Of a stretch of 26,959 nt of DNA, positions 4,485 to 26,959 are shown piece by piece. The notes below the pieces were generated by a model, which did not search any database, was not told the DNA's origin, and saw nothing but the letters and a program-made list of their open reading frames with translations. Made by a program: the position numbers and the translations under genes. The DNA is taken from NCBI GenBank assembly GCA_045046875.1, contig JASFYY010000082.1, positions 1 through 26,959 of the forward strand, in the 5' to 3' direction. The stretch comes from Verrucomicrobiota bacterium. Lineage in GTDB: Bacteria; Verrucomicrobiota; Verrucomicrobiia; Verrucomicrobiales; DEV007. Numbering within the stretch: position 1 is the first letter of the stretch; each line of letters opens with the position of its first letter.

Positions 4485-6230
4485 ATGCCTTCCTCCAAAC
4501 CACGCTACCGAGCCTTCATCAGCTACTCGCATCGCGACGCGAAATGGGCGAAGTGGCTGCATCGCTCTTTGGAGCACTACGTGGTGCCCATTGATGCTTT
4601 TACTGAAGGCAAAAAACCGAAATCCGATGGGTCGACAAAAAATCGCCGCCTGACACCAGTATTCCGTGACCGGGATGAACTGCCAGCATCGGGTTCACTC
4701 GGCGATACCATTCATCATGCACTCGCGTCGTCAGAAAATCTGATTGTGCTCTGCTCACCGGATTCCGCCGCATCACAATACGTCAATGCCGAGATTGATA
4801 TTTTCCGCACACTGCATCCTGACAATGAAAAGAAAATCTACGCTTTGATCATTAAAGGCGAACCCCCTGCGTGTTTTCCTCCAGCCTTGCTCTCAACCGG
4901 AGCCGAGCCCATTGCCGCCGACGCCAGGGAAACCGGTGACGGCAAAACGGACTCGAAACTGAAACTGATCGCCGGCCTGCTGGGCGTGGGTTTTGATCGC
5001 TTGAAACGACGTGAAGCCAAACGCCAGCGCAACCGGTTAATGTTAATGGTTACCGTGATATCGACGGTAGCGGTGATAACATCGCTGCTATCCTTGTGGG
5101 CATTAAAATCAGAACAAGAGGCCAATGAAGCGCGGGATCTCGCAGAGCAACGTCAGTTGGAAGCGGAAAAAGCCCGACGCAAAGCTCAAGATCTGGCTAC
5201 TTTTATAGGTCGGAAAATGCTTGAGACCATGGACAGACGAGGCAATTCCAGAACCTTGTTCGAGGTGGTGGAACGAATGGACGCTTATTACAAAGATATC
5301 CCCGTAGCGAATTTGAGCCAGGAAGAAAAGTCCTATTATATGGTAGCCATGATTCAAGGAGGGGAGCAAGCTCTGGCAGAACTTAATCTTGACGCGGCGG
5401 ATGACTATTCCAATCGAGCCCTTGCATTGAGCAAACAAATGGATTTGAAGGATTCCGATCCATTTTTCAGCTCGGCGGCCTTATTACGTGTTTCTTTTTT
5501 AATTAAAAAAAATACTCCGGACAAAGCCGGAGACATTATAGCCCTACTGGATGAGGCCATAACAAAATCAACCCCGGAGGATCAATTTAACTTATTGATT
5601 CAGAAAGGCAGTTTCCTGAAAAATGAAGGTGATTTTGAAGAGGCTCTTTCCTCTTATATCCAAGCGGATAAGTTGGCCAAACACATTCTAACCGAAGAGG
5701 GCATGGGAGTTAAAAGTATCATGCTGATTCGAGGGCTCTTGCATAACAACTATTTTGAAACCGGCCTTGTCTATGGAAAATTAGGCCGCAAAGAAAAGGC
5801 AAACACCTGTTACCTACGCGCCATCAATGGAGCAAAAGAACAACTGCGACGCAGACCTGGCAATACCGACGCCATGCACATTATTTTCATGGCATCGGGG
5901 GCCTTGGGGCATTCATTCTTGGCTGACGGTAAAAATGGTGAAGCCATGATAGTTTTCCACAAACGTGAAGAGATTACAAAAAAAATACTCGACCTGAAGC
6001 CTGACAACCCTATTTATCAACAAGCTCTCATCAGCGCCAGAATTCTCGAAGCCAGACACAGCCCAAAATTGAGCATTAAGGAAAAAACCCAACTTTACGA
6101 AAAAGCCTTGGAAGATTTCAAAGCTATTCCAAAAGCTGATGACGTCCTGTATGGCGTGGACAAAGAAACCCAGGTAGAAATCCGTGAAAAGTGGATGCAA
6201 GAGCTGGGGGAATTGAAAGCCCTACAGTAG
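4485..6230 (+). CDS. TIR domain - transmembrane helix - TPR protein (paralog 1)
   Basis: TIR motifs YRAFISYSHRD, FRDRDEL, LIVLCSP and YVNAE (candidate catalytic Glu103). Basic stretch KRREAKRQRNR precedes a hydrophobic helix (~5037-5105). Degenerate TPR-like helices follow (GDFEEALSSYIQA, YGKLGRKEKANTCYLRA). Confidence 0.88.
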   Translation: MPSSKPRYRAFISYSHRDAKWAKWLHRSLEHYVVPIDAFTEGKKPKSDGSTKNRRLTPVFRDRDELPASGSLGDTIHHALASSENLIVLCSPDSAASQYVNAEIDIFRTLHPDNEKKIYALIIKGEPPACFPPALLSTGAEPIAADARETGDGKTDSKLKLIAGLLGVGFDRLKRREAKRQRNRLMLMVTVISTVAVITSLLSLWALKSEQEANEARDLAEQRQLEAEKARRKAQDLATFIGRKMLETMDRRGNSRTLFEVVERMDAYYKDIPVANLSQEEKSYYMVAMIQGGEQALAELNLDAADDYSNRALALSKQMDLKDSDPFFSSAALLRVSFLIKKNTPDKAGDIIALLDEAITKSTPEDQFNLLIQKGSFLKNEGDFEEALSSYIQADKLAKHILTEEGMGVKSIMLIRGLLHNNYFETGLVYGKLGRKEKANTCYLRAINGAKEQLRRRPGNTDAMHIIFMASGALGHSFLADGKNGEAMIVFHKREEITKKILDLKPDNPIYQQALISARILEARHSPKLSIKEKTQLYEKALEDFKAIPKADDVLYGVDKETQVEIREKWMQELGELKALQ

Positions 6231-6307: not shown

Positions 6308-8254
6308 ATGACAAAAATGAAAACCAAAGTCGACGATTTGCTGAGAACGATCCAGTCTCCCTCGACCAGCATACACGAGCTGCGGGACATTTGGGAATCC
6401 CGCTCTCTTGCCATCTGGCTGAACCACCCGGAACTCCACGCCGCCCTCACCCTTCGTTTACAACATCGCAGTCACCCCTTCTGGGTCTTTGAAATCACTG
6501 ACGAAGGCAAACAATGTGAGGCCTGCAACGATGAAATTTTCACTCAACTAACACGAACTGCAGCCCTCAGCCTGGCCCGCACCGGCGCCACCCGCAGCGC
6601 CATGGAAATGCTGAACAAGCTATTGGAAAAAGGTTCCCCGCAAGCGGAAACATTCTGCCTGCTCGGTCGTTTACAGAAAGATGTAGCTTACACCGCCAAA
6701 GCCGGGGAGAAACGTAAGCAACACCTGCAATCCGCTTTTTCCTATTATTCGCGTGCGGTAGAACTTGAGCCCTATAACTATTACCCACTGATCAATACCG
6801 CAACCGTCGCCCTTCTACTCGGCAACAAAAACGAAGCCTCTATCGTAGCTGAGCAGGTAATTGCACTCTGCCAAAAACAAATCGAGGAAAACGACGACTA
6901 CTGGCTATTGGCCACGCTGGCGGAAGCGCAGCTACTGCTGGGAAATACCGACAAAGCCGGCGCGCACTACCGCGCAGCAGCCGAAAAAGTTGGCCATGAA
7001 TACTCCAGCCTGCAATCCATGCGTAGCCAGGCCCGGCAAATCCTTAATGCGCAGGATCAGGATCCCTCTTTGCTCGATTCCACCTTCCTAATGCCTCGGG
7101 TTGTCGTATTTTCCGGACACCGCATTGATGCAGCCGAGCGCAGCAAACCACGTTTCCCGCCATCCGCGATTGCCGCCGTATCGAGGAATATTTCAACCGC
7201 TGTCGCCAACTGGACCCCCATGATCGCCTACGCTTCCGCCGCCCCGGGAGGAGACCTGATTTTTTGTGAAGCTGTTTTAAAAAACGGCAACGAGCTGCGC
7301 CTAGTGCTGCCCTTTGATTTGAAAAATTTTCGAGGCTACATTTTGCAAAGCGCTGACGCCGATTGGTTGCAACGTTTTGACTGGGTAGCCGCCAGAGCAA
7401 CCAGCATCGTAACCGCCTCTTCTGGAAAACACCATGAGCAGATCCAGGGATCTGCCATCTACGACTTTGTCAATCGTCTCATCCTTGGCCTGGCTCGCTT
7501 CGAATCCCGTTTTTTGGAAACCTCTTTACAGACCATCGCCTTGTGGGATCAAGTCGGCCTAACCGTCACCGGAGGAACTGCCGACTGCATCGCGCTGTGG
7601 CAGAGTGTTGGCCTAACGGTCGATACCATCATCGATCCTTCCGGAGCCCCCCTCCTGCCAGTCCACCAAAGCCCGGATTTGATTAAACTTGATCGATCGA
7701 GTTTACAAAACAAAAACGAGCAACAAATCAAAGCCATCCTTTTTGCTGACATCGTTGGATACAGCAAATTAGAGGATTACGACCTGCCTCGTTATTACGA
7801 CAGCTTCCTGAAACCTATTGCAGAAAGCATCGCCCGCTTTGATTTCGCCCCCTTGACCTCCAACTGCTGGGGAGACGCCTTCTATTTTGTCTTCGACAGT
7901 GTTCGGGAAGCCGGGCTTTTTGCCTTGGAGTTCCACCGGGCCATCGAACAACAAGAGTGGCTGCCACAAAGCACGGGGAAAAAACTCCACTTCCGGATCG
8001 CCTTGAATGCCGGACCGGTTTTCGAGCTCCGCGACCCCGTCACCGGCACCCTCAACTTCACCGGACAACACACCAACCGAGCCGCCCGAATCGAACCCAT
8101 GGTCCAGGAAGGGCAAATCTACGTCAGCGAATATTTTGCCGCCCTCGCCTCCGTCGAGCAAATCGACGAGTTCGCCCTCGACTACGTCGGCTACCGCCCT
8201 CTGCCAAAAAAATACGGTAGCAGCCGCGTCTTCATCCTACGCGCCCCCCAATAA
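6308..8254 (+). CDS. TPR (TPR-S/DUF4071-like) + SLOG-like domain + class III nucleotide cyclase
   Basis: TPR region: ETFCLLGRLQKD, YYPLINTATVALLLG, DDYWLLATLAEAQLLLG, LQSMRSQA. SLOG/YspA-like Rossmannoid region ~7097-7630: VVVFSGHRID, YASAAPGGDLIF, LVLPF, ALWD..GGTA. Cyclase ~7727-8250: LFADIVGYS, WGDAF, RIALNAGPV, GQHTNRAARIE, GQIYVSE. Confidence 0.88.
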   Translation: MTKMKTKVDDLLRTIQSPSTSIHELRDIWESRSLAIWLNHPELHAALTLRLQHRSHPFWVFEITDEGKQCEACNDEIFTQLTRTAALSLARTGATRSAMEMLNKLLEKGSPQAETFCLLGRLQKDVAYTAKAGEKRKQHLQSAFSYYSRAVELEPYNYYPLINTATVALLLGNKNEASIVAEQVIALCQKQIEENDDYWLLATLAEAQLLLGNTDKAGAHYRAAAEKVGHEYSSLQSMRSQARQILNAQDQDPSLLDSTFLMPRVVVFSGHRIDAAERSKPRFPPSAIAAVSRNISTAVANWTPMIAYASAAPGGDLIFCEAVLKNGNELRLVLPFDLKNFRGYILQSADADWLQRFDWVAARATSIVTASSGKHHEQIQGSAIYDFVNRLILGLARFESRFLETSLQTIALWDQVGLTVTGGTADCIALWQSVGLTVDTIIDPSGAPLLPVHQSPDLIKLDRSSLQNKNEQQIKAILFADIVGYSKLEDYDLPRYYDSFLKPIAESIARFDFAPLTSNCWGDAFYFVFDSVREAGLFALEFHRAIEQQEWLPQSTGKKLHFRIALNAGPVFELRDPVTGTLNFTGQHTNRAARIEPMVQEGQIYVSEYFAALASVEQIDEFALDYVGYRPLPKKYGSSRVFILRAPQ

Positions 8255-8306: not shown

Positions 8307-8408
8307 ATAGGTCTGACCCTTTTTATAGGTCTGACCCTTTTTATACTCTCAGGACCCTACTTTCCTGCCACAAGCATTAAACTACATGAGGCCTGACCCT
8401 TCTTTATA
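8307..8408. repeat. Tandem 18-bp direct repeat with palindromic GGTCTGACC core plus a degenerate third copy
   Basis: ATAGGTCTGACCCTTTTT at 8307-8324 and 8325-8342 (exact tandem); AGGCCTGACCCTTCTTTATA at 8389-8408. Confidence 0.85.
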
Positions 8409-8478: not shown

Positions 8479-9027
8479 ATGGATCCGAACGAGGCTCTCT
8501 ACCATAAAATCACTAAATTTGCGCAAAATGCTGACCTCTATGGTTTTATGCAGTGGCTGCCAAGTTCCACCCCCGCCCTGCTCAAACAAACGATCCACCA
8601 TATGGGCGGGCATGAAGGCAGTATCTGGATCGTGGATGCCCCCAAACAGCAACTGGTGACTTGTTACAACACCTTGGAATTACAACGGCATGTCTGTCAG
8701 GATCTCAGCTCCGGCCTGGTTTCCAAAGCTTTCAACGAAGAACGCGCAGTTCATCACCAAGGGGTGCACCGTTTCAAGGACAGCTCGGGCAGTGTTGATG
8801 AGACACTTGAGCAAAAAACCCAACACCAGATCAGTGTTCCTTTTTACATCTGCGGCCAATTATGTGGCGCTCTGAGTGTCGTGCAGCTTTCCAGTGATTT
8901 CCACAGCGCCCCGCGCGAAGATGTTCCCTGGGGGTTCAAAGACGACGCCATTCCCCTTTTGGCCGCCGCCGCCACAGTCATCGCCGAGGGCATCGAGGCC
9001 AAGTGGCAATCAGGCTCTGATAAATGA
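8479..9027 (+). CDS. Stand-alone GAF domain protein
   Basis: 182 aa with GAF pattern GSIWIVD..QQLV, GLVSKAF, ISVPFYICGQLCGALSVVQ and terminal F.DDAIPLLAAAATVIA helix; no output domain. Confidence 0.78.
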   Translation: MDPNEALYHKITKFAQNADLYGFMQWLPSSTPALLKQTIHHMGGHEGSIWIVDAPKQQLVTCYNTLELQRHVCQDLSSGLVSKAFNEERAVHHQGVHRFKDSSGSVDETLEQKTQHQISVPFYICGQLCGALSVVQLSSDFHSAPREDVPWGFKDDAIPLLAAAATVIAEGIEAKWQSGSDK

Positions 9028-9047: not shown

Positions 9048-10145
9048 TTACGGTAAATGCTCGGGTTTCACGGTTTCTTCCGCGTATATCCTGCCGAGCT
9101 CTAGCAACTTTGGCACGGACGCAATATCACTCAATTCAAAAGGATGAGTGCTGCCGGTTTCCCGACGGCAGTCTTCCTCCTCCTCATCTGTGAATTGGTG
9201 CTGATAGCGGCAATAGAGGAATTTCTCCAATCCCCCTTCGGTCAAAGCATCCAGTTCCCCGTCGATTGACGCACCGCAGATAGTTTTGCCCAATACCCGG
9301 CATAATTTATCCTGCTCAACCAATACTGAATCCATCAGGCCCTTCAGCGCTCTGAGTCCACCTCCCAATACATTGACATGCCCCAACTCGCCCGGCGCAT
9401 AAGTGATCGAAACCCGTCCCGTCCCCACCGAACACAGGAACAGCTTGTCCGCCCCGGTCGGCATATTCATATTGTAAGCTGGTAAAGTAGCCGCCAGATA
9501 CATCGCCACCGAAGGATTGTTGTAAGGTGACACCGCTCCATCAATAAACTCAAATTGCTGCTCGGTGCCGTCCGGAGAATGCAACTTAACCAATTCGGTA
9601 GGGAAAAAAGCCGGTGCCGCCGCGCTCGCCCTGATCAACTGCCACAAAGGAATATCGAGATTAGTGGGGATTTCATCATTCGGGTTGCGTTTATTATAAC
9701 GTGCTTCGGGATGATTAGTGATCGGCCAAGTCGAACCGGTGGTGCCATTGCGCATCACCAACATCAAACAGGTTTTCAACTTTTTTGATCCCAGCGTCAT
9801 CGGCTCCCCCGCCGATTCCTCGAAATTTTCCTTCAACAAACGAGTAAAAGCTTCCGACCCATAAAAACTACGCCACGATTGCCAGAAAGGTTTACGCCGG
9901 AAAACAATCGGACCCAGTTGTTCGTAACTTTCCCGAACCTCCCTCACCGACATTCCTTTAGACAACATCGCTGCAATAATGCCGCCGGTACTATTGCCTC
10001 CAATGAAATTAAAATAATCAGCTAGCACAAAATCCGGATTCTCCTTCTGATAACGCTCCCGCAGGATGTTTTCTATACGTTCCAGAATGGCAACGCTGAA
10101 TATCCCGCGGATGCCTCCGCCGTCGAGTGAGAGAAGTCGGTTCAT
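9048..10145 (-). CDS. Patatin-like phospholipase
   Basis: Oxyanion motif LSLDGGGIRG, nucleophile elbow GNSTG (G-x-S-x-G), RASAAAPAFF, catalytic Asp in FIDGAV, YNNP, SVGTG. Confidence 0.92.
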   Translation of the reverse strand: MNRLLSLDGGGIRGIFSVAILERIENILRERYQKENPDFVLADYFNFIGGNSTGGIIAAMLSKGMSVREVRESYEQLGPIVFRRKPFWQSWRSFYGSEAFTRLLKENFEESAGEPMTLGSKKLKTCLMLVMRNGTTGSTWPITNHPEARYNKRNPNDEIPTNLDIPLWQLIRASAAAPAFFPTELVKLHSPDGTEQQFEFIDGAVSPYNNPSVAMYLAATLPAYNMNMPTGADKLFLCSVGTGRVSITYAPGELGHVNVLGGGLRALKGLMDSVLVEQDKLCRVLGKTICGASIDGELDALTEGGLEKFLYCRYQHQFTDEEEEDCRRETGSTHPFELSDIASVPKLLELGRIYAEETVKPEHLP

Positions 10146-10267
10146 ACTTTAGCTAAATTTTGATTACAAGTAACAACAGGAGATCCCCCACCGCACCGCT
10201 TTTTTCTATAAAAATCAATTGGCTTGAACCTCGGGATAGCCTTTCTTATCGGCAACTCACCCAACTT

Positions 10268-12439
10268 ATGCCTCACGACAAACCACACTACCGGGCCTTC
10301 ATCAGCTATTCGCATCGTGATGCAAAATGGGCGAAGTGGTTGCACAAAGCCCTGGAACAATACCACGTCCCCATCGACGCCTACCCGCCTGGCGACAATC
10401 TGCAAGATGATGGCTCGAAAAAAAGCCGACGCCTGACCCCGGTGTTCCGCGACCGCGACGAACTGCCCGCCTCTGGCTCGCTGGCGGATACCATCCAGGA
10501 AGCGCTTGAGGCTTCCGAAAACCTGATCGTTCTCTGCTCCCCCAACTCCGTCGCTTCACAATACGTGAATGCCGAAATTGAAATATTCCGTGGTTTGCTA
10601 CCTGAGAATGATCAAAAAGTTTACGCCCTGATCGTCGACGGTGACCCGCCCGATTGTTTTCCTGCGGCGCTGACGGCCGGCGGTGCTGAACCCATCGCCG
10701 CTGACGCCAGGGAAGAAGGCGATGGCAAAGCGGATGCCAAGTTGAAATTGATCGCAGGGTTGTTAGGGGTTGGTTTTGACCGCCTGAAACGGCGCGAGGC
10801 TACCCGCCAACGCAATCGTTTATTGATCATGGTATCGGTGATTTCTGCAGTTGCTGTGATGACTTCCTTTTTAGCCGTGTGGGCGCTGAAGGCAGAAAAA
10901 GAAGCGACCAAACAAAAGGTGGTAGCAGAGCAGCAACGTGAACTCGCGGTAGAATCTGAAAAAGAAGCCACCACCCAAAAAGAACGTGCCGAGCAACAAC
11001 GAGAGTTGGCTAAACAATCAGCCAAAGAAGCGACCGCAGCCAAAATCGTAGCTGAAAAACAACGGGAACTGGCCGTACAATCGGAGAAAGTCGCCACTAC
11101 TGCCAAGGAGCACGCAGAGCAACAACGCGAACTAGCCGAACAAGCGACCCGTGAAGCCAAAGCCGTGTTAGCCTTTTTTAATGCCAAAGTCCTCGCCGCC
11201 GCCAGACCCAAACAACAAGACGGAGGGCTCGGCATTGACGCTACGATTCGCGCAGCTATCGATGCCGCAGAGCCTCAAATTTCCACTGCTTTCAACGATC
11301 AGCCAGCAGTGGAAGCCACCATCCGTACCGCCATCGGCACTTCCTATTGGTATCTCGGTGAAGCCCAGACTGCCATCCCCCAACTCCAGCGGGCGCTGGC
11401 TCTACGGGTCAAATTACTCGGACCGAAACATCTGGATACACTCAAATCAATGACCGTGCTGGCCAATTCCTATCAACGGGTCGGACGCAGGGAAGAAGCC
11501 CTCGAGCTACGGGAAAAAACTTTGCAGACGGAAAAAGAAATCCTCGGCCCCAAGCACACCGACACCCTCACTTCGGCGAGTAATCTGGCCGTTTCTTATC
11601 GCGGAGCAGGACGCTTCAAAGAAGCTCTGGCCTTGGATGAAGAAACGCTCAAGCTACGCAAAGAGGTGCTCGGACCAGATGACCCTGCTACTATTTCGTC
11701 CATGGGCAGTCTGGCATCATCCTACAGTTCCCTCGGCCGACAAGAAGAAGCTTTAAAGCTTCGTGAGCAAGTGTTGGAACTTTTCAAAAAAGCCCGCGGA
11801 GAAGGCCACCCCGACACGCTCAATTCGATGCAAAATCTGGCTAACTCCTATGAGACGCTGGGACGCGAAAAAGAAGCGCAAGCCTTGCGCGAACAAACCC
11901 TTAAACTGCGAATCGAAGTGCAGGGCCCCGAGCACCCGGACACCCTGCGAGCCAAGTTCAATATGGCCAATTCATACATCTCTGCCGGACATTGGGATCA
12001 AGCTATAGCTTTACACCAATCCACATTGCAATCGATGATCCAGGTTCTCGGCCCGGACCACCGCGAGACCATCGGCACCATGAATAGTCTGGCCTATTCC
12101 TACTGGAAGACCGACCAGCTGGCTAATGCTGAAAAACAATACCGACAGCTGTTGGCCGCACGCAAACGACGAGAGGACATCGACTTGGGATTTTACCACG
12201 CTCAATCAATATTGGGTGAAATTCTTGCTGAACAGAAAAACTACCCTGAAGCTGAAACCTTGTTACTTGCGGGATACAAAGGAATGGAATCCTTGCTTTC
12301 CAAAACCAAAGGCCGTGAGCGTTTGAAATTTGCAATCGAACGCCTGGTGACCCTTTACCAAAAATGGGACAAACCTAAATCCACCTCCCTCTGGCTGAAA
12401 AAACACAAAGCCCTGGAAGCGCCTGCGGCTACACAATAG
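10268..12439 (+). CDS. TIR domain - transmembrane helix - coiled stalk - 42-aa TPR array protein (paralog 2)
   Basis: Start at ATG 10268 (MPHDKPHYRAFISYSH) aligns with the paralog 1 start. Same TIR motifs including YVNAE, then a TM helix, 21-aa repeats and kinesin-light-chain-type TPRs (LGPxHxDTLxSxxNLAxSY). Confidence 0.9.
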   Translation: MPHDKPHYRAFISYSHRDAKWAKWLHKALEQYHVPIDAYPPGDNLQDDGSKKSRRLTPVFRDRDELPASGSLADTIQEALEASENLIVLCSPNSVASQYVNAEIEIFRGLLPENDQKVYALIVDGDPPDCFPAALTAGGAEPIAADAREEGDGKADAKLKLIAGLLGVGFDRLKRREATRQRNRLLIMVSVISAVAVMTSFLAVWALKAEKEATKQKVVAEQQRELAVESEKEATTQKERAEQQRELAKQSAKEATAAKIVAEKQRELAVQSEKVATTAKEHAEQQRELAEQATREAKAVLAFFNAKVLAAARPKQQDGGLGIDATIRAAIDAAEPQISTAFNDQPAVEATIRTAIGTSYWYLGEAQTAIPQLQRALALRVKLLGPKHLDTLKSMTVLANSYQRVGRREEALELREKTLQTEKEILGPKHTDTLTSASNLAVSYRGAGRFKEALALDEETLKLRKEVLGPDDPATISSMGSLASSYSSLGRQEEALKLREQVLELFKKARGEGHPDTLNSMQNLANSYETLGREKEAQALREQTLKLRIEVQGPEHPDTLRAKFNMANSYISAGHWDQAIALHQSTLQSMIQVLGPDHRETIGTMNSLAYSYWKTDQLANAEKQYRQLLAARKRREDIDLGFYHAQSILGEILAEQKNYPEAETLLLAGYKGMESLLSKTKGRERLKFAIERLVTLYQKWDKPKSTSLWLKKHKALEAPAATQ
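10892..11143 (+). repeat. Four tandem 63-bp (21-aa) coiled-coil repeats inside TIR paralog 2
   Basis: AEKEATKQKVVAEQQRELAVE / SEKEATTQKERAEQQRELAKQ / SAKEATAAKIVAEKQRELAVQ / SEKVATTAKEHAEQQRELAEQ. Confidence 0.9.
11414..12169 (+). repeat. Six 126-bp (42-aa) TPR repeats
   Basis: Units begin LLGPKHLDTL, ILGPKHTDTL, VLGPDDPATI, ARGEGHPDTL, VQGPEHPDTL, VLGPDHRETI at 42-aa spacing. Confidence 0.9.
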
Positions 12440-15503: not shown

Positions 15504-16253
15504 TTACTCACCAGCTTCAATATTTTTATACCGATAAGGCCGATACCCCAGACCCTTCACATAATCGACGGATATCGGATGCTTCAACACCTTCCAACTC
15601 GGCGGAGAGCCCGTTTCGTAAGCAAGGAAGCTCTTACGCTCACTGCCCAAGAATTTCACAAAAAGCAAACAGTGCACATTGGATTGATTCACAATATCCC
15701 CAGGTTGGAGTTCTTTGAATGAAGCAAGCTCGTTAGAAAGCGCCGGCAATTCCCTTGTCGAAAACGATCTCTCTAGCCGCCAGCAACGAGAGATAAATCC
15801 CGAGCAGTCTATTCCGCAGGCCTGCAAACTCACCCCGTCATCCAATAAACGCCTTTTCTCCGAGGAATAAATATCTCCGGCATAGAAACCTGACGACAAT
15901 TTTTGTTCAAACGATACAGGCGTATCAAACCCACCCCACATATACGGAATACCGGTATTTTTTTTATTTGAAATCCACCAACCGGGGCGCTCCGCCCCTG
16001 GGTCAGTATAGGCAATATCCGGTGTATCCACCCGAATTCCACCGTCATCAACACCGTGAAAAATATTTTTCTCCGACGGCACCCAACGATGCGAGTGATA
16101 GGCTTCTGCTATTTTTAAAACATCCTGCCTGGAAACAGAACTCCTAGACTCGAAACTAAGCCCTTTCCCAGAATACTTAGAAACACATGAGCCAATTAAA
16201 AAAAATACAATAAGTGAAGCAAAGCGAAGCATGAAAATAGAATACACCTTCAC
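15504..16253 (-). CDS. NlpC/P60-like (papain-fold) lipoprotein, putative peptidoglycan peptidase
   Basis: Lipobox-like LIGS-C; GIPYMWGG, GIDCSGFISRCW (catalytic Cys), LQPGDIV, VHCLLF (His), AYET. Confidence 0.72.
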   Translation of the reverse strand: MKVYSIFMLRFASLIVFFLIGSCVSKYSGKGLSFESRSSVSRQDVLKIAEAYHSHRWVPSEKNIFHGVDDGGIRVDTPDIAYTDPGAERPGWWISNKKNTGIPYMWGGFDTPVSFEQKLSSGFYAGDIYSSEKRRLLDDGVSLQACGIDCSGFISRCWRLERSFSTRELPALSNELASFKELQPGDIVNQSNVHCLLFVKFLGSERKSFLAYETGSPPSWKVLKHPISVDYVKGLGYRPYRYKNIEAGE

Positions 16254-16744
16254 CTCTTCCGCAATTCCTCTACCATCTGTTCGGCACGAACAAGTTTTTG
16301 CGTAGAAGCATCTAGTCTTTGAGCCAATAACTCAGCCAAGAAGCGATACATGCCCGCGTAATAAGCATTCCGGGCTTCTGCATTTAGCCCGTCGAGAAAA
16401 TCTTGTTTCACCTTAATACAATACACCTGAGTCTCGGCCACAATAGTCGCCGTCCGTTGCCCCTCCTTAAGCAAAGCAATTTCACCCAACAACTCGCCAC
16501 CTCCAGAGGCGGCTCCGATGACCGACCCATCCTTTTGAACGCGAACCTTGCCTTTCAATAAAAACAGAAGATCCCGTTCATCCGCCCCTTCCGCGATCAC
16601 CACATCCCCGGGCTCGCAATCGAGCATCGTCGTGCTCGACAACATTTCCTCAACAATCTCCGGTGCCAGCGTCTTAAAAAAAGGGATCTCAGCAACGGGA
16701 GCAGGCACTGTACCTGCACGATAATTCAGCGGGTATTCTTTCAT
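16250..16744 (-). CDS. Stand-alone cyclic nucleotide-binding domain protein
   Basis: PGDVVIAEG, LLFLLKGKVRV and phosphate-binding cassette GELLGEIALL...QRTATIVA; no HTH. Stop overlaps the NlpC/P60 GTG start by 4 bp. Confidence 0.88.
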   Translation of the reverse strand: MKEYPLNYRAGTVPAPVAEIPFFKTLAPEIVEEMLSSTTMLDCEPGDVVIAEGADERDLLFLLKGKVRVQKDGSVIGAASGGGELLGEIALLKEGQRTATIVAETQVYCIKVKQDFLDGLNAEARNAYYAGMYRFLAELLAQRLDASTQKLVRAEQMVEELRKR

Positions 16745-16790
16745 AATCAATGACTCCGTTGTTTACTCAAAGGGAAGAAGCTCCCAAGCT

Positions 16791-26562: not shown

Positions 26563-26959
26563 TCACTCCTCGCTCCCACCTTGCAACAACCCTGTCCCTA
26601 AATCCCGCAATACCCGCAATTCCCCCCACTGCGCCCCCCGCATCTTTCTACCGCCATCCTTGCGTCGCTCCCCAAAACACTCTCGCCGCCCCGCAAAAAA
26701 CTCATCCACAAATCCCTGACTCCCCAACACCGCCCCATCAGTAAAATACCGCACCCGACAGCGTAAAGCTGCCGCCAAAGGCAATTTCCCACCCGCCCGC
26801 AACACCTCCTCAATCTCCTCCTGAGTAAATCCCCCCTTCCGCCGATCCACTCCGTCCGGTGTAACCCCACCCAAGCGCTCCTCCCCCGTCCCATACAACA
26901 AACACCGATATTCCGCCTCCACCGTCCGCCAAGCCACCCTTTGCCGCCCCATCACCGCA
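26563..26959 (-). mobile_element. 3' end of a REP-associated tyrosine transposase (RAYT/IS200-like), truncated by the window edge
   Basis: LRCRVRYFTDGAVLGSQGFVDEFF...FGERRKDGGRKMRG recalls the C-terminus of verrucomicrobial RAYT-like transposases. The HUH/Y catalytic part lies outside the window. Confidence 0.65.

Follow-up and report, generated by a model that had tools for sequence, protein, structure and literature searches.

A TPR-S, SLOG and class III cyclase protein between TIR genes of a Verrucomicrobiota bacterium: a family with an unusual base pocket and a possible link to TIR signals

What would a class III nucleotidyl cyclase make when both residues that normally select its base are replaced, and what would switch it on? 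This question is raised by a gene encoding a protein of 648 residues in a stretch of 26,959 nucleotides from a Verrucomicrobiota bacterium of the order Verrucomicrobiales (GenBank assembly GCA_045046875.1, contig JASFYY010000082.1, positions 1 to 26,959 of the forward strand), the whole of which is called the window hereafter. An earlier note, made from the letters of the window, had described the cyclase domain and leaned towards a cyclic pyrimidine as its product, as made by the PycC enzymes of Pycsar. Taken as a whole, the material is best read as a cyclase gated by the signal of a TIR protein and making cyclic AMP (cAMP), perhaps with relaxed base choice, a reading as apt to hold as to fail. 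The family is real and widespread, and its cyclase output is one difference between the protein of the window and type VIII Thoeris.

The protein is devoid of membrane helix (peak 19-residue hydropathy of 1.24) and comprises three domains, the last of which the earlier note had rightly described, missing the other two as well as the marker residue Trp521:

6308 to 8254, forward strand: whole cyclase gene, an open reading frame (ORF) of 648 residues with TPR-S/TPR, SLOG and class III cyclase domains
6521 to 7057, forward strand: TPR-S sensor domain and following TPRs, residues about 72-250 (PF20308, residues 72-167, E 9.3e-17; PF13281, residues 91-217, E 2.9e-11)
7091 to 7642, forward strand: YpsA-like SLOG domain, residues about 262-445, from fold comparison of the model
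7727 to 8245, forward strand: class III nucleotidyl cyclase domain, residues 474-646 (PF00211, E 9.5e-6, above the cut-off)

By its fold, its two metal-binding Asp and its transition-state Arg, the C-terminal domain belongs to the class III nucleotidyl cyclases. Its AlphaFold model, with a predicted local distance difference test (pLDDT) of 97, best matches 8HBH (Z 21.4, root-mean-square deviation (rmsd) 2.4, 176 aligned) and then CyaB 3R5G (Z 20.8), adenylyl and guanylyl cyclases being about tied; the class III fold put forward in the earlier note is supported (Z of about 21), as are its intact catalytic core and its non-canonical pocket. Residues 262-445 have no Pfam match and take a SLOG fold in the model (pLDDT 94.8), closest to YpsA 2NX2 (Z 17.7, rmsd 2.5, 158 aligned; Foldseek E 1.2e-5), with DprA next (Z 13.1) and then LOG, TRPM and ThsA, and the linker that follows (residues 451-468), where the N-terminal helix typical of PycC would be looked for, is unconserved in the family consensus. 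The TPR-S domain of Pfam is a predicted sensor for nucleotides derived from NAD. At least 58 homologues of the 648-residue protein stand among the matches listed, and 53 full-length relatives from 80 loci carry the cyclase domain in all cases, TPR-S in 52 and an additional RyR domain in 37, the latter not being present in the copy of the window. Upstream of the gene, a GGAG is located six bases 5' of the ATG, and a scan for promoters and terminators returned signals no better than those of shuffled sequence.

The catalytic and pocket residues were followed across 305 distinct family domains, pooled from fetched proteins and loci at 90 bits or more, near-relatives included:

7748 to 7750, forward strand: D481, first metal-binding Asp, in F-A-D-I-V-G (D in 300 of 305)
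7862 to 7876, forward strand: N519-C-W521-G-D523, with base site 1 (Asn), the family-marker Trp and the second metal-binding Asp (N 280, W 299, D 302 of 305; codons starting at 7862, 7868 and 7874)
7994 to 7996, forward strand: R563, phosphate-binding Arg (305 of 305)
8054 to 8089, forward strand: N583 (base site 2, codon at 8054), H588, N590 (codon at 8075) and R594 (8087-8089) (N583 133, H588 271, N590 87, R594 305 of 305)
8207 to 8209, forward strand: K634, last-hairpin Lys, putatively phosphate-binding (301 of 305)

Both metal-binding Asp lie where the earlier note had placed them. The phosphate role of R563 is presumably that of its counterpart in the mammalian cyclase numbering, and that of K634 is suggested by alignment with the K-G-K-G motif. 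Since the 305 relatives hardly vary in their metal- and phosphate-binding residues, the enzyme is very probably an active cyclase. Regarding the transition-state NxxxR, said to be intact, N590 and R594 are indeed present, but the Asn is a minority state at a position where Ser dominates (176 of 305), only the Arg being invariant. Of note, two relatives (P0041 and P0046) have both metal Asp altered (Glu, Ser) and retain TPR-S, and are probable inactive copies.

As to the base-selecting residues, the family profile places N-T-W-G-D on the E-T-I-G-D of the guanylyl cyclases 3ET6 and GC-A, and residue 519 is thus the Lys/Glu site, as the earlier note had it. Similarly, L-N-F-T-G-Q-H-T-N aligns without gap on the Y-D-Y-Y-G-R-T-P-N of the trypanosome adenylyl cyclase 1FX2, which makes residue 583 the Asp/Thr/Cys site; the register proposed for this second Asn was right, but the residue itself is variable in the family (besides the 133 Asn, T 58, S 57, G 14, D 12, K 7, E 5 and others 9). 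The alignment holds no Lys/Asp pair at the purine pocket. Neither the canonical adenylyl pattern (Lys with Asp, Thr or Ser) nor the canonical guanylyl one (Glu with Cys) is found in the Asn519/Asn583 copy of the window, and at site 1 the family has Lys in 1 and Glu in 13 of its 305 members.

A local oddity, chance or a sequencing error is rejected for N519, the motif being found family-wide. Searched with the cyclase domain alone, the family is large, with 2,484 clusters at 50% identity at E 0.001, 1,696 at 1e-10 and 315 at 1e-30, the weaker of which will include other cyclases; in the best 150 of these matches, on which the residue counts for clusters rest, site 1 is Asn in 133 representatives. 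The comparison set consisted of 67 class III domains from ten genomes, the source genome and four further loci. Four of them carry the Trp and group inside the family on the tree, and the remaining 63 have no Trp at all (0/63) and Asn at site 1 in four, whereas W521 is kept in nearly the whole family. On these alignments, Trp521 appears as the distinctive feature of the family; the site-1 Asn is real and not unique, and the site-2 Asn is no family trait. The copy of the window is an ordinary member of its family and not a special case. The gene is patchily distributed: at E 1e-10, 20 of the 301 genomes from the order have it, and in the genus 4 of 4 do. No relative was found in the viral contigs searched. 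Besides, two divergent Trp-bearing cyclases (L112:349-2679 and L113:1-1977) form long branches within the family; both have Val in place of the transition-state Asn, and the former has a TauD dioxygenase domain as its fusion partner.

For the product, a close comparison is with Rv1900c (LipJ; 1YBT/1YBU), an adenylyl cyclase by its PDB title, which shares the site-1 Asn (N-T-A-G-D) and from which it follows that Lys is not required there for an adenylyl cyclase. Its fold is close to that of the model (Z 19.8, rmsd 2.4, 159 aligned); it differs in having Ala where the family has Trp, a hydrolase fusion, an identity of about 21% and no link to TIR, SLOG or TPR-S. According to the part of the literature consulted for it, Rv1900c has adenylyl as well as guanylyl activity without the transition-state Asn, which is dispensable there (PMC4886424), and Ma1120 is likewise reported active with Ala at that position (PMC4215837, in part). 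Of the 280 members with Asn519, 245 have Asn, Thr, Ser or Asp at site 2, residues that would keep the donor/acceptor polarity of the Lys with Asp, Thr or Ser pairing; Thr, Asp or Ser occupy this site in 54 of the 67 comparison domains. Being shorter than Lys, Asn519 would be poorly placed to reach a smaller base. For the unusual pocket, a purine product such as cAMP would be a better match than a cyclic pyrimidine, and cAMP is the main predicted product, with an even balance between this outcome and all others.

A minority of the family has a Glu/Lys form of the base pair, found in six sequences (6 of the 13 Glu members and 6 of the 7 Lys members) on two branches. The same pair, Glu118/Lys195, is modelled as contacting guanine in PucC, described as a maker of cyclic GMP (cGMP) in the text available of the Pucsar preprint (bioRxiv 10.64898/2026.08.12.744502). 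That such a form apparently arose twice points to purine use in a suggestive manner only: the covariation has a raw Fisher p of 1e-8, inflated by kinship, and a median p of 1 over independent pairs. Some relatives are other fusions of the same cyclase family (P0163, P0053, P0167, P0175, P0181 and P0203), the partner being an N-terminal GAF domain (in a Glu/Lys member), a C-terminal HATPase_c_2 or a C-terminal RyR. The natural variants of the pocket (Asn/Asn, Asn/Thr, Asn/Ser and Glu/Lys, the Trp being present or lost) would allow base selection in class III enzymes to be tested directly.

Modelled as a homodimer with ATP and Mg, the cyclase domain scores 0.86, compared with 0.00 for the best of three controls; this mark is attained by 20 of the 30 homo-pairs of known structure and by 1 of the 23 single chains. 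Between runs, 98% or more of the contacts are the same, with pLDDT of at least 91. Since class III dimers are already solved, this score shows likeness, not binding. In the model, N519 contacts N519' and W521 contacts W521' across the two-fold axis, and such a cross-axis contact offers another possible reason for the conservation of Asn519.

The case for gating comes from the domains and from the neighbours of the gene, which are as follows:

4485 to 6230, forward strand: upstream gene with TIR, membrane helix and TPR (TIR_2 E 8.7e-14, ThsB_TIR E 6.4e-9; helix 186-204)
8479 to 9027, forward strand: stand-alone GAF gene (GAF_2 E 0.0014, short of the curated threshold; relatives at 14 of 80 loci)
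9048 to 10145, reverse strand: patatin phospholipase (PF01734 E 3.3e-22; NF041079 E 2e-28, below the cut-off; 4 of 80 loci)
10160 to 12439, forward strand: second gene with TIR, membrane helix and TPR (72% identity to the first over 232 residues)

The upstream TIR protein, whose gene ends 78 bases before the cyclase gene, is the candidate signal maker; the GAF protein may be a reader of cyclic nucleotides, and the patatin is a candidate effector. Both flanking TIR genes keep the conserved Glu (S-Q-Y-V-N-A-E-I in the upstream copy), a putatively catalytic residue. Neighbours were counted within about 8 kb around each match in the best 80 of 595 confirmed genome stretches: a TIR gene occurs in 45 of them, the GAF family in 14, a patatin in 4 and a cyclic-nucleotide (cNMP)-binding domain in 4, other neighbours being STAND ATPases, DUF4062 and SLOG-SLATT proteins. 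As five genomes hold 1-4 TIR_2 matches per 3.9-8.7 Mb, chance proximity of a TIR gene is near 1% (about 0.4-1.6% per 16 kb); in the source genome itself (5.6 Mb), two of the three TIR genes found by profile flank the cyclase gene. In the locus L001, the cyclase protein is 98% identical to that of the window and the neighbours are 92-99% identical, except that the counterpart of the upstream TIR protein (L001:4635-6575 vs. window:4485-6230) is 84% identical over the first 232 residues (TIR and membrane part) and then bears a different TPR tail, which resembles that of the second TIR gene. Such a swap is as expected for a sensor under diversifying pressure. In this same near-identical relative, the second TIR-TPR gene (L001:10441-12720) is split into two ORFs of 400 and 329 residues.

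The locus thus has features of Thoeris type, that is an adjacent TIR with the conserved Glu together with TPR-S and SLOG, predicted sensors recognised by profile and fold. As in type VIII Thoeris (ThsB TIR and ThsI), a TIR gene stands beside a protein combining a TPR sensor with a nucleotide-acting enzyme; ThsI is a CMP hydrolase with TPR which answers cyclic ADP-ribose, according to the text available of the Thoeris survey (bioRxiv 10.64898/2025.12.03.692087). The window differs from it by a class III cyclase as the enzyme, by the SLOG in between and by long, membrane-anchored and TPR-tailed TIR proteins. Like ThsA of type I Thoeris (SIR2-SLOG), the protein has a SLOG fused to an enzyme (ThsA SLOG 7UXS, Z 6.8, rmsd 3.8, 128 aligned), but this SLOG is far closer to YpsA, and a cyclase takes the place of the NADase as output. 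The main text of the survey has the word cyclase in three places and for other proteins only, and PADLOC has no match for the 648-residue protein. Literature searches, which covered few subscription journals, returned no functional study of the family nor any paper on its architecture. Fig. 1A and Table S1 of the Pucsar preprint may place the family in its 'immune clade 1'. TIR/TPR-S systems were reportedly predicted by Burroughs and Aravind in 2020, possibly already with the architecture of the window.

Gating of the cyclase by a TIR signal is rather likely. A membrane-anchored flanking TIR protein would sense a cue via its variable TPR tail and cleave NAD+ to an ADP-ribose-type messenger, which would bind the TPR-S and/or SLOG domain of the cytoplasmic cyclase protein and let two cyclase domains close into the head-to-tail dimer of the model. 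There, by the roles of their counterparts in known class III enzymes, D481 and D523 would hold the metals, and R563, R594 and K634 the phosphates. The base would most likely be adenine, giving cAMP, possibly with a looser choice between A and G; Asn519 would replace Lys as in Rv1900c and mainly pair across the dimer axis, with site 2 keeping an oxygen-bearing acceptor. At the weakest step, the GAF protein encoded next to the cyclase, or else cNMP-binding proteins of a general kind, might read the cAMP. If such gating is true, two messenger systems usually studied apart would be joined, with the product of a TIR protein controlling the synthesis of a cyclic nucleotide.

Several observations weigh against this scheme. 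The TIR linkage is uneven, with 32 of 37 loci in Acidobacteriota vs. 5 of 23 in Verrucomicrobiota, 5 of 15 at the level of the order and 4 of 24 metagenome loci (mostly short contigs); no TIR occurs in 18 kb at L175, a close relative, and the counts are not independent as related loci share kinship. A conserved reader is absent, given the low counts of cNMP-binding and GAF neighbours reported above. The genome encodes six other class III cyclases, from whose output the cAMP of this one would need distinguishing. On the pocket side, the conserved Trp521, His588 and Tyr/Phe526 could reshape it, and the Glu/Lys covariation has two origins, fails the test on independent pairs and lacks Lys in 7 of the 13 Glu members.

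Among the other explanations, the best surviving one, although unlikely, is that the triggered cyclase is indifferent to the base, converts any nucleoside triphosphate (NTP) and drains the nucleotide pool with no need of a reader. The near-invariance of phosphate and metal residues, set beside a base site 2 that varies, would suit such an effector, as would the missing conserved cNMP reader; the TPR-fused enzyme of type VIII Thoeris is proposed to alter the nucleotide pool in the text available of the survey (bioRxiv 10.64898/2025.12.03.692087), and Rv1900c, with the same site-1 Asn, is reported to use two substrates (PMC4886424, in part). However, the strong conservation of Asn519, Trp521 and His588 and the recurrence of Glu/Lys suggest that base choice matters, and some loci do have GAF, GAF-fused or kinase-cNMP neighbours.

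Less likely again is a different outcome of the same pocket, namely mainly cGMP or a cyclic nucleotide with a modified base (e.g. from inosine triphosphate), or a slow or inactive dimer switch that binds NTP and serves a SLOG enzyme. Asn can in general donate or accept hydrogen bonds, guanylyl cyclases are among the best fold matches, and Ser is the commonest residue at the transition-state Asn position; besides, some SLOG domains are enzymes and conflict systems hold inactive cyclases (PMC9503650 and PMC7159879, in the parts available). The copy of the window has no Glu at site 1, though, and keeps N590, and retention of D481, D523, R563, R594 and K634 in 300-305 of 305 domains would be hard to explain without catalysis.

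A more distant prospect is a cascade of two messengers, in which the NAD-derived TIR signal would switch on a cyclase with an Asn/Trp/His pocket making a non-standard cyclic nucleotide (pyrimidine or modified base). If true, it would amount to a second, PycC-independent route to such signals across many phyla, the Glu/Lys branches being retuned to cGMP.

The specific form of a pyrimidine cyclase arisen independently of PycC, its pocket made smaller by Trp521 and Tyr/Phe526 and its uracil or cytosine recognised by an Asn, is more improbable still. In the available part of PMC11224242, AnPycC selects its base at F60, K104 and F109 (around D62 and D106), which correspond to 479, 521 and 526, EaPycC does so at F100, R142 and Q144, corresponding to 479, 519 and 521, and PycTIR reads uracil via an Asn. 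The family has F, W and Y/F at 479, 521 and 526, the bulky W521 and Y/F526 lying at the points of narrowing in the AnPycC pocket, and the Trp is gone from all 5 members of one Glu/Lys branch, as though to make room for a larger base. But F479 is generic (its equivalent is found in 53 of the 67 comparison domains), two Glu/Lys members retain the Trp, 521 and 524 bear no long polar residue, and W521 may be structural, paired as it is with its symmetry mate in the dimer model.

Pycsar itself is a natural comparison, as PycC (BcPycC 7R65, EaPycC 8JSF, AnPycC 8JSZ) and PucC share with the window the fold, a non-canonical pocket and an immune-type context. The PADLOC models of PycC gave no match for the cyclase domain, whereas a control PycC, a cyclase beside a PycTM gene (P0208), was matched at E 1e-87, and at E 5.5e-41 with BcPycC 7R65, and even an ordinary CHASE2 cyclase was matched at E 1e-16; three of eight relatives match one PycC model at E 6e-4 to 0.016. 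The published selectivity triads (Y50/D94/R97, F100/R142/Q144 and F60/K104/F109; PMC11224242, in part) have no counterpart in the window, which reads F479/N519/W521/A524/F526 at these positions, mapped by spacing from the catalytic Asp residues, while 15 of 15 PycC controls read Y/D/R. PycC structures are missing among the about 50 matches listed per fold search and the best 60 of the profile search, and may rank lower. Unlike PycC, a small stand-alone enzyme, the cyclase is fused to sensor domains. Scanning the four neighbours gave no match to a Pycsar effector model, neither flanking TIR protein has a cNMP-binding domain, and PycTM (PF18967) was not found in the source genome, 94.7% complete; the scan of related loci covered cNMP-binding domains, not PycTM. 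Given this absence from both TIR proteins, the signal would run from TIR to cyclase, opposite to the direction in Pycsar.

A quick tree of 95 rows puts the 25 family rows on one side of a branch with support of 100 and the sampled PycC outside, that sample being one PycC clade and one further candidate. Forcing the family and PycC as sisters is not rejected (p-AU 0.80, from the approximately unbiased test), which would leave room for the pyrimidine reading, but the six other forced sister groupings are equally unrejected (0.80-0.90 for all seven) and all seven outscored the free quick tree; since none is rejected, the tree says nothing about the sister group. On profiles, triads and neighbours, membership of Pycsar is rejected. 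The lean of the earlier note towards a Pycsar-like pyrimidine is thus not supported, the more so as the site-1 Asn is shared by Rv1900c and by four of the 63 unrelated class III domains and as site 2 has a polarity of adenylyl-cyclase type. Two Pycsar-like operons were seen in other genomes of the class (L088:736-1449 and L089:668-1438); the L089 cyclase, a weak match for the family profile (probability 3.7%), adjoins a gene of the PycTM family yet has Lys and Thr at its base sites, the adenylyl pattern.

A few further features were recorded. Two other cyclases of the source genome are also without Lys at site 1 (G000:C42:24197-26164, Asp; G000:C103:4254-5342, Gln). In six loci of soil Verrucomicrobia (L034, L037, L040, L043, L054 and L061), a TIR-free cassette precedes the cyclase, in the order unannotated ORF, same GAF family, S8 peptidase, CobW_C-like gene and cyclase; downstream, genes for CHAT-TPR and CHASE2-cyclase proteins often follow. 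In the window, a stand-alone cNMP-binding protein (16250-16750; PF00027 E 1.5e-13) is encoded 8 kb downstream of the cyclase gene, beside an aconitase-like gene; it is not favoured as a dedicated reader, being unmatched in the flank of L002, which ends at about that point. At the far end, the ORF fragment 26563-26958 is presumably the end of a transposase associated with repetitive extragenic palindromes. Just 3' of the cyclase gene (8310-8400) lie three short GG(T/C)CTGACCC repeats, and the genome has 17 and 15 exact copies of their two forms.

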